Positions 30,901-33,900 of a stretch of 64,000 bases of DNA are shown here, piece after piece. Source of the DNA: Lytechinus pictus (lineage: Eukaryota). A model generated the notes under the pieces. That model saw nothing but the letters and a program-made list of their open reading frames with translations. It made no database searches and was not told the origin of the DNA. Position numbers and translations under genes: made by a program. Numbering within the stretch: the stretch's first letter is position 1; every line of letters begins with the position of its first letter. The stretch is taken from NCBI RefSeq assembly GCF_037042905.1, contig NC_087251.1, positions 43,588,001-43,652,000 of the forward strand, read 5' to 3'.

Positions 30901-33900
30901 TTCTTTGCTTCAGTAAAACTCAGATCATATTACAGAATTAACATATATTCAAATTCGGTAATATCAACCAATCAAAATAAAGAGAATGGAAAGATCGTAC
31001 TAAAATGTAAGAGTCTAATTCATAAGAATAACCAATAAGAGATAGTGGATGGAGATGAATAGGATGTTGGGGGTGATTACAAGAATGTTGAAAAAAAGAA
31101 TCAGATGTGGGAATGTAAAGATTGAACACATCTGATTAGGAAAGGAATGACAAGAGAAGCAGGTTGAAAGTCAAATGGATGACAACAGAAGCATCAAGAA
31201 TTTTTTTTAAAAGCTGAACTAAATAACATAACTATAAATAACTATAAAGAAAACAAAAATGTCAAAATAACAGTCCTACAACATTATTTCCAATTCAGAG
31301 CAAATAGACTACTAACACAACACAAATTTCGCGTGAAACGTGTCACCCCACTGACAGCGTTTCCATAGTAACAAGATAGCTTTACGTGAAGTGATTTTGA
31401 AAACCACACCATGTGATCAAGTGGGAACACTAGCATGCTATCTTCCAAACTGGTTTCCTGAATCGGTTTCCATTATACTAGTTTTAGAAAGCGTAACGAG
31501 AACAGCCTCTAAGTGTAATAAAGAAACTTGCAAAAGTCACCTTTCCATAAGAACACTCAGCAAAGTTGAAGCAATTTTTAAGACCAGATTAATGCCAAAC
31601 ATGTGTTTGTATCTTCTTAGTTTGATTTCTCCTCAGTTGTACACAATTCTGTGGTCCTAACACAATCGATGAAGGCCCCTGTTACATCTAGTATATTGCT
31701 TATCCCGGGCTGACCAAAGATTTTTCTAGATGCAACAGGGGTCTAAGGCAAAGTTTCCTGTATTTGTATATATATATATATAAACATACCTTCTTTGCAT
31801 TCATCTTGACACTCATGTTGTGTTTGAGTTTGATCTCATCCTCAGCTGCTATGCTGCTTCCGCTTATACTTCCGATGGAGTCTTTGGATGGAAACTTGAA
31901 CTCCGGGTGCGCGTCCGTATTGCCTGGTGGGGAAACAGCACCATCACTGTACCCTTGAGCGGCTAAGGCAAATTGAGGCAGAGATGGGGGAGGGTATGGC
32001 GTGCGTGAGGATGTGTGTCATATGTGTGTATACATATGTGTTTTTTTAATTTGTGTGTGAATGATTGCATAGGTAAGGTGAAGGTACAAAGATGGAGAGA
32101 AGAGGTGATAGATGGTGATGGTAAGAAAGGAAGAGGAGGAAAAAGGAAAGGGTCATGATATGACATTCATTTCAACAATGCAAGATGGATCATGGATACA
32201 TAACAAGATTTGATGAGATGATGACATGGATGGATGAATGAAGAGAGTAACCGCAAGAAGAATGATAGTGAGAGTGGATAATATTACACAGAAGAAATGT
32301 ATAGAATATGGAGGCATTAAACGATCCCAGAAGAAATGAAAAATAGGGGATGGAAACAGGATAAATGATTACGAAAGATGTAAAGTTACCGTGGAGGTGG
32401 AGTTATAGTGAAGGTAATGACGGAAGGTGGAAAGTAAAAAGCAAAGCAAGCACAGTGTCAAGGAATAAGACACACACACAAGATGACCCACATCAGCATA
32501 AAGAATGAAACACAATAAGGTGTCAATGAAGAGACAAGGTTCCCAACGGAAATTCCAAGTTGTACGAGGAAGGGACAGGGAAAAGAAAAGATGAAAATGT
32601 TCATGATAGTGTATTAGAGAAACATGACCATGCATCACATGACATGTAAAAAAAAAGATACACACATGATCGATCCAATTAGTGAGTTAAAAGTAGAACA
32701 CAAAGCATACACACAGTCATCATTTCACATAAGAATGTACATCAGCGCGCACGCACACATACACACACACACACACGGGGATGAGTTAGAAAAGTAAAAA
32801 AGAGAGGAAGAGAATTTTTTGTCAAGGATGGATGAGAAATGAGAGAGTGAGAGAAGAGACAAAACAAAATTAATCAACATGCATAAAACAAAATCAAATA
32901 AATCTGGAACAACTATTGAATGATTTATTTTACACAGAACAGGGTCAAACAAGTCTCACAGGCCTTCTGCAAATAAAAAAAACCAAAAACAACACTTGAG
33001 ATGCAAAGCCTTCATATGGTACAATGCATTATGTGCAAGCTGCAAATATAATTATATTTAAATAACTGTTGGTTTTTTTTTACTCATTTTTAGATATAAG
33101 GACCTTTTTTCCAGATTGTAATTTGCTTTGTTATCATCAATGAAAATGTAGACAATAGATATTAATGATTAACTAATCAATATTTCTTGCATTAATTCAA
33201 ATGTGAGAATTTAATTCATATCTTCATACACCTAACGAATAAACATTGAATGTCATAAACCTTAAAAGGTAAGAAGCATATAATACTGACATAACAAAAA
33301 TCATTCCTATAATTTATATGGTTTTAGTGGCTTAGATAACATTTAAATAAATCATTATTTAAAACTTAAGTGAAAGGAAAATTTGCAATTATCAACTTGA
33401 CCATGAGGGAAACAATGATTATACAAAATCATTTACTTACTTCCTGTGAGAATTAAGAAGAATGTTAAAATAGAACATGAACCTAGCATCACAATAATGA
33501 AAGTTGAGAAAGATGGATTTTCTGAAGTGACCTCAATCATGCGATTTTCTCTTTGCTGTCATGCATTTAAAAAGGACAGGAATATGGCATCATCAAGCAC
33601 AGCTATTGAGGCTACGATATGAGCTGAACTAAAAGATTCAACATGCAGACTCGACGACGGTGGCAGTAAGGGTAGGGGGAGTGGTCGTCTTCTTGGCTAG
33701 AGGGTTCACAGGTGTGGTTACAGGGGCATGATAGGATGAGGTCAAAGGTCATAGGTAGGGTCATGTGTATACGCATGTGAGGGGTGTGTCTGTGTGAGTG
33801 TTCATGTGAGTTTAAGTTTAAGTACACATAGAAAGTTGTAGTATAAAGCATGGATGTCCCAAGAAGTCCTGTTATTTGCCTTGCCACAAAAGGTTACGTC

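Follow-up and report, generated by a model that had tools for sequence, protein, structure and literature searches.

A 939-nt AG-free zone before an X-Y linker exon of a sea urchin PLC-beta4-like gene is a probable AG exclusion zone

Why should the last 939 nt of an intron contain no AG at all, right up to the acceptor? This question is raised by a 64,000-nt stretch of Lytechinus pictus DNA (the window), which carries most of a PLC-beta4-like gene on its minus strand. The AG-free zone precedes an exon for the linker between the X and Y domains of the protein (the focal exon; Table 1). A first reading of the DNA letters, hereafter the sequence-only reading, had claimed that no CT dinucleotide (AG on the sense strand) occurs across 939 nt abutting the acceptor. 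The claim is borne out exactly: the plus strand has no CT from 31965 to 32903, and the bordering CTs stand at 31963-31964 and 32904-32905. No CT-free run of the window exceeds it, and the other long dinucleotide-free runs fall at a (TAG)n array (55975-56817) or at a 48-nt satellite (26917-28384). Under the counting rule of Gooding et al., which demands no AG from the acceptor to at least 100-150 nt upstream and ignores the last 12 nt, the AG-free length is 941 nt (939 nt by strict counting), and the zone has the length of an AG exclusion zone. We think it probable that the zone is such an AG dinucleotide exclusion zone (AGEZ), kept by purifying selection and serving distant or multiple branch sites.

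We checked whether base composition could account for the missing AG. The sense strand of the zone comprises 397 T, 244 C, 188 A and 110 G, a composition from which 22.0 AG are expected and none is found. The related dinucleotides occur at their expected numbers (GA 22 versus 22.0, AA 36 versus 37.6, GG 11 versus 12.9); thus, the deficit is specific to AG and does not reflect a general shortage of purines. The sequence-only reading had proposed a comparison with composition-shuffled sequence, and no shuffle approached zero AG: at least 7 AG remained in each of 20000 mononucleotide shuffles, and at least 9 when the zone was shuffled within 10-, 25- or 50-nt blocks (n = 5000). As A and G are interspersed, the expectation from local composition at 25-nt resolution is still 18.8. 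The depletion therefore goes beyond base composition, with 0 AG against 18.8-22.0 expected. Even the 5′-most 200 nt should hold 5.2 AG (P about 0.005), so the constraint, if selective, seems to extend beyond -740 (negative numbers give distances from the acceptor).

The same gene and the same intron served as controls. At 18 other acceptors of the PLC-beta4-like gene, the AG-free stretches measure 19-84 nt by strict counting and 21-86 nt by the Gooding rule. The remaining 4870 nt of the intron contain 217 AG, which is 0.89 of expectation, and are 52% pyrimidine, in comparison with 68% in the zone. The edge near 32905 is abrupt; there are 6 AG in 33000-32901 and then none. The zone is thus pyrimidine-rich on the sense strand, and it is not a simple repeat, both as the sequence-only reading had it. 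Tandem Repeats Finder reported no tandem array inside the zone, and a repeat search recovered four short two-copy matches of 15-26 nt only; we therefore rejected an origin from tandem repeats. An origin from a transposon or dispersed repeat was likewise rejected, because only the (GT)n word of the zone recurs in the 811.7-Mb assembly and the rest is single-copy. The zone is no assembly artefact either, since contigs of a related organism (runs X6 and X8) are colinear with the window over 31797-32713 and 32813-33226 and an independent contig from the window's own organism (run X1) is identical over 32053-35945.

We mapped the exons on annotated proteins to learn what the zone adjoins. The focal exon translates with 100% identity to P0001 (L. 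pictus isoform X3), and the translated exons match L. variegatus isoforms at 98-100% and one Diadema isoform at 71%. By Pfam, P0002 has PI-PLC-X over residues 318-467 and PI-PLC-Y over residues 615-729, along with PLCB1-4-like EF-hand, PH_14 and C2 domains. The focal exon encodes residues 529-586, between PI-PLC-X and PI-PLC-Y, and is thus an X-Y linker exon. The sequence-only reading had named the gene PLCB4 and put the exon in this linker; the domain positions confirm the latter, and the matches to named Lytechinus proteins support PLC-beta4-like as the gene's identity. The X-Y linker holds PLC-beta enzymes in an autoinhibited state, a role established for PLC-beta3 (PMC10691244).

The linker is also a place of much annotated alternative splicing, in keeping with the PLC-beta linker isoforms of the sequence-only reading. 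Of 35 proteins, all of them database models, 29 were complete or partial isoforms whose linkers could be read, and these we aligned. They show three in-frame starts of the focal exon (AAQGYSDG..., GYSDG... and GNTDAH...), which correspond to three tandem acceptors, A1, A2 and A3. The A2 junctions 37776>31953 and 44577>31953 reproduce P0007, P0012, P0014 and P0003, P0016, respectively, exactly. The A3 junction 37776>31923 does so for P0009, and Diadema P0024 and P0032 have the same form. All three acceptor forms are present in Diadema, with and without the upstream 84-nt acidic cassette, which is itself included or skipped in Lytechinus, Strongylocentrotus and Diadema isoforms. A3 has a UGAU about 20 nt upstream, within the exon, and with this element and its own pyrimidine tract it may not need to rely on branch sites in the intron. 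Use of a fourth AG, at +16, would break the reading frame and appears in no protein examined. Skipping of the focal exon, which at 173 nt would also shift the frame, was seen in no isoform examined. A further 20-residue cassette exists in S. purpuratus and in Diadema; tblastn of these two cassettes against the window gave chance matches of 4-6 residues only. The exon behind the AG-free zone is in sum alternatively spliced in the annotation, by its three tandem acceptors and by the cassette upstream, which falls short of the regulated splicing hub that the sequence-only reading proposed.

How would a spliceosome read such an intron? We propose that the last 0.94 kb would act as one long pyrimidine-rich tract containing many branch-site-like sequences, and that U2AF and the U2 small nuclear ribonucleoprotein probably engage several of them, far-upstream ones included. 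After branch formation the spliceosome would take the first usable AG downstream. Under this first-AG rule any AG arising in the zone would be a false acceptor, and its use would insert intron sequence into the PLC-beta linker; without such an AG, every branch would lead to the same acceptor cluster (31962, 31953 and 31923). The proposal starts from four observations: AG alone is missing, the zone ends at a used acceptor, it is a distinct pyrimidine-rich domain, and the region is alternatively spliced. We infer that selection rather than descent may keep the zone free of AG, and that the AG-free arrangement may influence the choice of isoform.

Searching the zone for branch-like sequences, we found 44 heptamers that fit YNYURAY with at most one mismatch and a fixed branch A, dispersed over its whole length. 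The best U2 matches are UUCUAAC (-823), UUUUAAC (-724), CACUAAU (-716), UUCUUAC (-159) and UCCUCAC (-43). Near the 5′ end of the zone, candidate branch sequences do stand next to a polypyrimidine tract: the pyrimidine fraction is 0.82-0.85 over the 40 nt after UGUUGAU/GAUUAAU, although such motifs are not enriched over shuffles. UUCUAAC has no good downstream pyrimidine tract of its own (fraction 0.57). The sequence-only reading gave the right positions for GATTAAT (32875-32869), TTCTAAC (32791-32785) and CACTAAT (32684-32678). Its conclusion of a branch point about 0.7-0.9 kb from the acceptor is one option only; candidate motifs do lie there, among the 44 heptamers zone-wide, which include those at -43 and -159.

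The arrangement has known relatives. Gooding et al. (2006, Genome Biol 7:R1, PMC1431707) described distant-branch-point exons with AG dinucleotide exclusion zones, among them human PTB exon 11 (AGEZ of 381 nt, branch at -351), nPTB (438 nt), GABBR1 (287 nt) and Fugu PTB exon 11 (590 nt, branch predicted at -566). Like these, the zone of L. pictus is an AG-free, pyrimidine-rich stretch that ends at an acceptor in an alternatively spliced region and has a branch-like sequence with its tract near the 5′ end, and the explanation offered in both cases is use of the first AG downstream of the branch. Unlike the Gooding examples, it measures 939 nt rather than 287-590 nt, its host is an echinoderm, and its branch points are candidates only. 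The focal exon, again unlike theirs, is not seen skipped; the tandem acceptor cluster and the upstream cassette vary instead. That study found large AGEZs not to be enriched in acceptor-site variation. Taggart et al. (2017, Genome Res 27:639, PMC5378181) mapped distal branch sites by lariat reads and found that they are conserved, coincide with where U2AF2 binds, and go together with alternative exon use and delayed splicing; branch position was also linked to the choice between tandem AGs. That set comes from vertebrates, counts as distal anything beyond 100 nt and is based on lariats, whereas the branch sites of the present intron are candidates from sequence. We consider the zone best filed as a new, very long member of the known class of distant-branch-point AGEZs, longer than each of the four examples above. 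A literature search on AG exclusion in sea urchins returned a sole match, which concerns mammals, and we make no claim that longer zones are unpublished.

Several observations weigh against an exclusion zone with distant branching. UCCUCAC at -43, with its pyrimidine tract, looks like an ordinary proximal branch site and makes ordinary proximal branching possible. The branch-like motifs are not enriched over dinucleotide shuffles, so the sequence alone cannot place the branch point. The zone is slightly less complex than its shuffles (distinct-6-mer fraction 0.690 versus 0.730 ± 0.013). In the related organism, the contig pieces carry 12, 34 and 19 substitutions, like most flanking intron pieces; divergence within the zone is about 3-7% per piece, compared with about 4-6% in flanking intron and 11-15% in two of its pieces, which indicates no general sequence constraint. 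Although 298 of the 2817 possible substitutions in the zone (10.6%) would create an AG, none of the 14 changes listed, out of about 47 zone substitutions, did so; with 1.1-1.5 expected and P(0) of 0.21-0.31, the test on these 14 is powerless. We also examined 20 random 10-kb stretches of the same genome, 200 kb in total. They contain AG- or CT-free runs as long as 623, 524, 453 and 419 nt, with up to 14.1 expected AG in repeat-like DNA, and so a simple Poisson null fails in this genome.

These background runs give substance to the view that the zone is a functionless by-product, namely a pyrimidine-rich, partly microsatellite-derived block that came to adjoin the acceptor and lacks AG by descent or chance, with branching at the proximal -43 site. 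The block does include (GU)n, CU-rich and CAUC-like tracts; against 500 dinucleotide-preserving shuffles of the zone, UGUGU occurs 18 times versus 4.9 and is microsatellite-derived, and the CU pentamers UCUCU/CUCUC occur 17 times versus 8.2. Its ordinary divergence and the proximal branch-like site fit the same view. However, the background runs of high value are degenerate microsatellites or tandem units with 6-mer complexity ratios of 0.57-0.82, and runs with a ratio of at least 0.9 reach no more than 7.3 expected AG. The zone has 22.0 at a ratio of 0.90, lacks long internal repeats, intersperses its A and G, and misses AG while GA stays at expectation. It also ends precisely at a used acceptor, in the sense orientation; an unrelated block would end, on the sense strand, within 84 nt of any of the 19 mapped acceptors with a chance of about 1.7%. 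Genome-wide, 0.02-0.6 such runs would arise by chance as an upper bound, if all runs are assumed to be as AG-poor as the zone. We conclude that a chance origin is unlikely, though not astronomically so, and that descent from low-complexity sequence stays a live rival; the by-product view as a whole we regard as unlikely.

The same tracts could instead be a selected platform for proteins, PTB-like repressors or U2AF-related factors, that governs how the acceptor cluster or the cassette is used while branching stays proximal; AG would then be avoided because a pyrimidine tract followed by AG makes a decoy 3′ splice site. The excess of CU words is in line with this and is modest: 1.8% of shuffles reach the count of CU pentamers, and 4% reach that of UCUU (23 versus 16.6). 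The experimentally studied distant-branch exons in Gooding et al. (2006, PMC1431707) are all PTB-regulated, and annotated isoforms differ in their use of the acceptor cluster and of the cassette. But so weak an excess is what low-complexity sequence gives, the zone lacks general sequence conservation, and a decoy AG matters only if working branch sites lie upstream of it, which leads back to the exclusion zone. We hold the platform to be rather unlikely. The sequence-only reading had looked to other factors, claiming dense Nova and Rbfox motifs. It located the YCAY cluster and the TGCATG copies correctly, but their density does not exceed that of the shuffles: YCAY occurs 48 times versus 43.1 ± 3.8 (reached by 0.138 of shuffles), 5.8% of shuffles match its densest cluster (7 in 40 nt, 32241-32202), and the two UGCAUG (32883-32878 and 32634-32629) compare with 0.52 and are reached by 9.2%. 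Neither YCAY nor UGCAUG is thus above background in the zone, as it should be in a Nova- or Rbfox-regulated intron.

A special form of the exclusion-zone explanation would have the distance bridged by RNA structure. Performing thermodynamic folding of a 976-nt RNA, we obtained a predicted stem between a (GU)n-rich arm A and a CA-rich arm B, present in both the minimum free energy and the centroid folds, with about 700 nt looped out. For most of 32776-32754 the predicted pair probability is about 0.9-1.0, and arm A finds no better partner in the intron than arm B. The stem would put the branch A of UUCUAAC 9 nt before it and the A1 AG 30 nt after it, so that UUCUAAC would reach the acceptor at an ordinary effective distance; the loop would have to be free of AG, as it is exposed before arm B is transcribed. 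UUCUAAC, whose own tract is poor, could then be served by the tract that follows arm B. In the piece of contig record 9, arm B is free of the 11 substitutions listed out of 12. Yeast offers a precedent, with secondary structures that span the distance from the branch point to the 3′ splice site (Gahura et al. 2011, PMC3239191); the predicted stem would likewise lie between branch region and acceptor and shorten the effective distance, while unlike the yeast structures it is predicted only, has microsatellite-like arms and encloses a far-reaching loop. Moreover, (GU)n and CA-rich tracts are frequent, and an equally good pairing is reached by 2% of 2000 random 111-nt windows of the gene. The whole zone folds with a z-score of only -1.87, and 1 of 20 shuffles folds equally well. 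The (GU)n arm is unaligned in the relative and hence allows no covariation test, and the stem would mask the -43 site rather than be required. We therefore treat the stem as a lead and not as a finding, and a structure-bridged branch point seems to us quite improbable. In its fullest form, to which we give an equally small chance, a deuterostome spliceosome would use branch points 0.8-0.9 kb away, the stem would shorten the effective distance of UUCUAAC to about 40 nt, and arm length or proteins binding GU/CA repeats would tune acceptor choice and with it the length of an autoinhibitory linker.

An AG exclusion zone kept by selection remains the explanation that we favor, and it would have consequences. 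If 0.94 kb is held AG-free by selection, splicing must at least on occasion use branch sites almost 1 kb away from the acceptor. The range of the first-AG-after-branch rule would then exceed that of the branches verified to -351 and predicted to -566. The acidic cassette and the three-way choice of acceptor would change both the length and the charge of the X-Y linker. The locus would also be a tractable test case, as minigenes can be injected into sea urchin embryos and the tail of the intron is small enough for cloning.

Table 1. Positions of the AG-free zone, its candidate elements and the surrounding exons in the window
Feature	Position	Strand	Remarks
Pyrimidine-rich zone free of AG, 939 nt, at the 3′ end of the intron (5813 nt)	31965..32903	-	0 AG versus 19-22 expected
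First AG 5′ of the zone (boundary)	32904..32905	-	next AG 32913-32914
Candidate branch/pyrimidine-tract region at the 5′ end of the zone	32825..32875	-	
Candidate GAUUAAU	32875-32869; branch A 32870 (-907)	-	UGUUGAU (-911) just before, then a pyrimidine tract of about 45 nt
Candidate UUCUAAC	32785..32791; branch A 32786 (-823)	-	best U2-pairing match of the zone, 6/7 to UACUAAC
Candidate UCCUCAC	32005..32011; branch A 32006 (-43)	-	usual distance; inside arm B of the predicted stem
(GU)n-rich arm A	32735..32777	-	predicted duplex, -39.4 kcal/mol
CA-rich arm B	31993..32036	-	predicted duplex; ends 30 nt before the G of the acceptor A1 AG
Acceptor A1 (uAG, +0) of the focal exon	31964-31963; first exon base 31962	-	exact isoform match; the 37776>31962 join reproduces annotated Lytechinus isoforms exactly
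Acceptor A2 (aAG, +9)	AG 31954..31955; first exon base 31953	-	removes residues AAQ
Acceptor A3 (cAG, +39)	AG 31924..31925; first exon base 31923	-	short pyrimidine tract inside the exon
X-Y linker exon (focal exon), 173 nt	31790..31962	-	exact match to annotated isoforms
Donor GT of the focal exon	31789-31788	-	
Intron before the focal exon, 5813 nt	37775..31963	-	
Acidic cassette exon, 84 nt (28 residues)	37776..37859	-	included or skipped in annotated isoforms
Upstream linker exon	44577..44654	-	donor joins the cassette or the focal exon; exact splice mapping
Exon after the focal exon	begins 30696	-	exact splice mapping

We also checked transcription over the zone in an rRNA-depleted RNA run (X21), sampled to about 6% of its reads. 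Depth is 16-17 at focal exon positions, with the first mate on the plus strand as expected for minus-strand RNA. In the bins across 32064-32795 it is 0 in both mate orientations, and an antisense transcript over the zone is unsupported in this sample.

Being AG-free and poor in stops, the zone yields open reading frames (ORFs) of 54-98 aa in the window; a protein collection searched with the 98-aa ORF gave no match. A related case comes from another urchin, where a 169-residue "protein" (P0005, an ENA record) is an ORF from a gene caller; it extends from pyrimidine-rich intron sequence into the exon and aligns to 31787-32017 of the window. This ORF is pyrimidine-rich over the 312 nt upstream of the exon. 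Its protein is uninformative on the presence of AG, which cannot be read from orthologous ORF proteins because no amino acid requires an AG-containing codon. For annotation, such zones are a source of long false ORFs, of which P0005 is an example. A metagenome scan for relatives of the focal exon gave 600 pattern matches, 0 of them confirmed.

Some repeats in the gene and elsewhere in the genome deserve mention. Locus L024 (G000:C3:9131107-9141106) is a degenerate microsatellite/low-complexity cluster that holds AG- or CT-free runs of the four lengths given for the background, and it is a caution for dinucleotide-exclusion statistics in this genome. Within the gene, the (TAG)n microsatellite, with about 281 units, sits in an intron that separates two X-domain exons, and the satellite with the 48-nt unit is C/A-rich, forms an array of about 1.5 kb and lies in the intron between Y-domain and C2 exons. 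Very high-copy dispersed repeats occupy about 35720-36940 and about 31330-31580, with RNA reads on both strands. Their summed contig word depths are 1e5-4e6 in both organisms, and they include inverted-orientation joints around 36265/36606.

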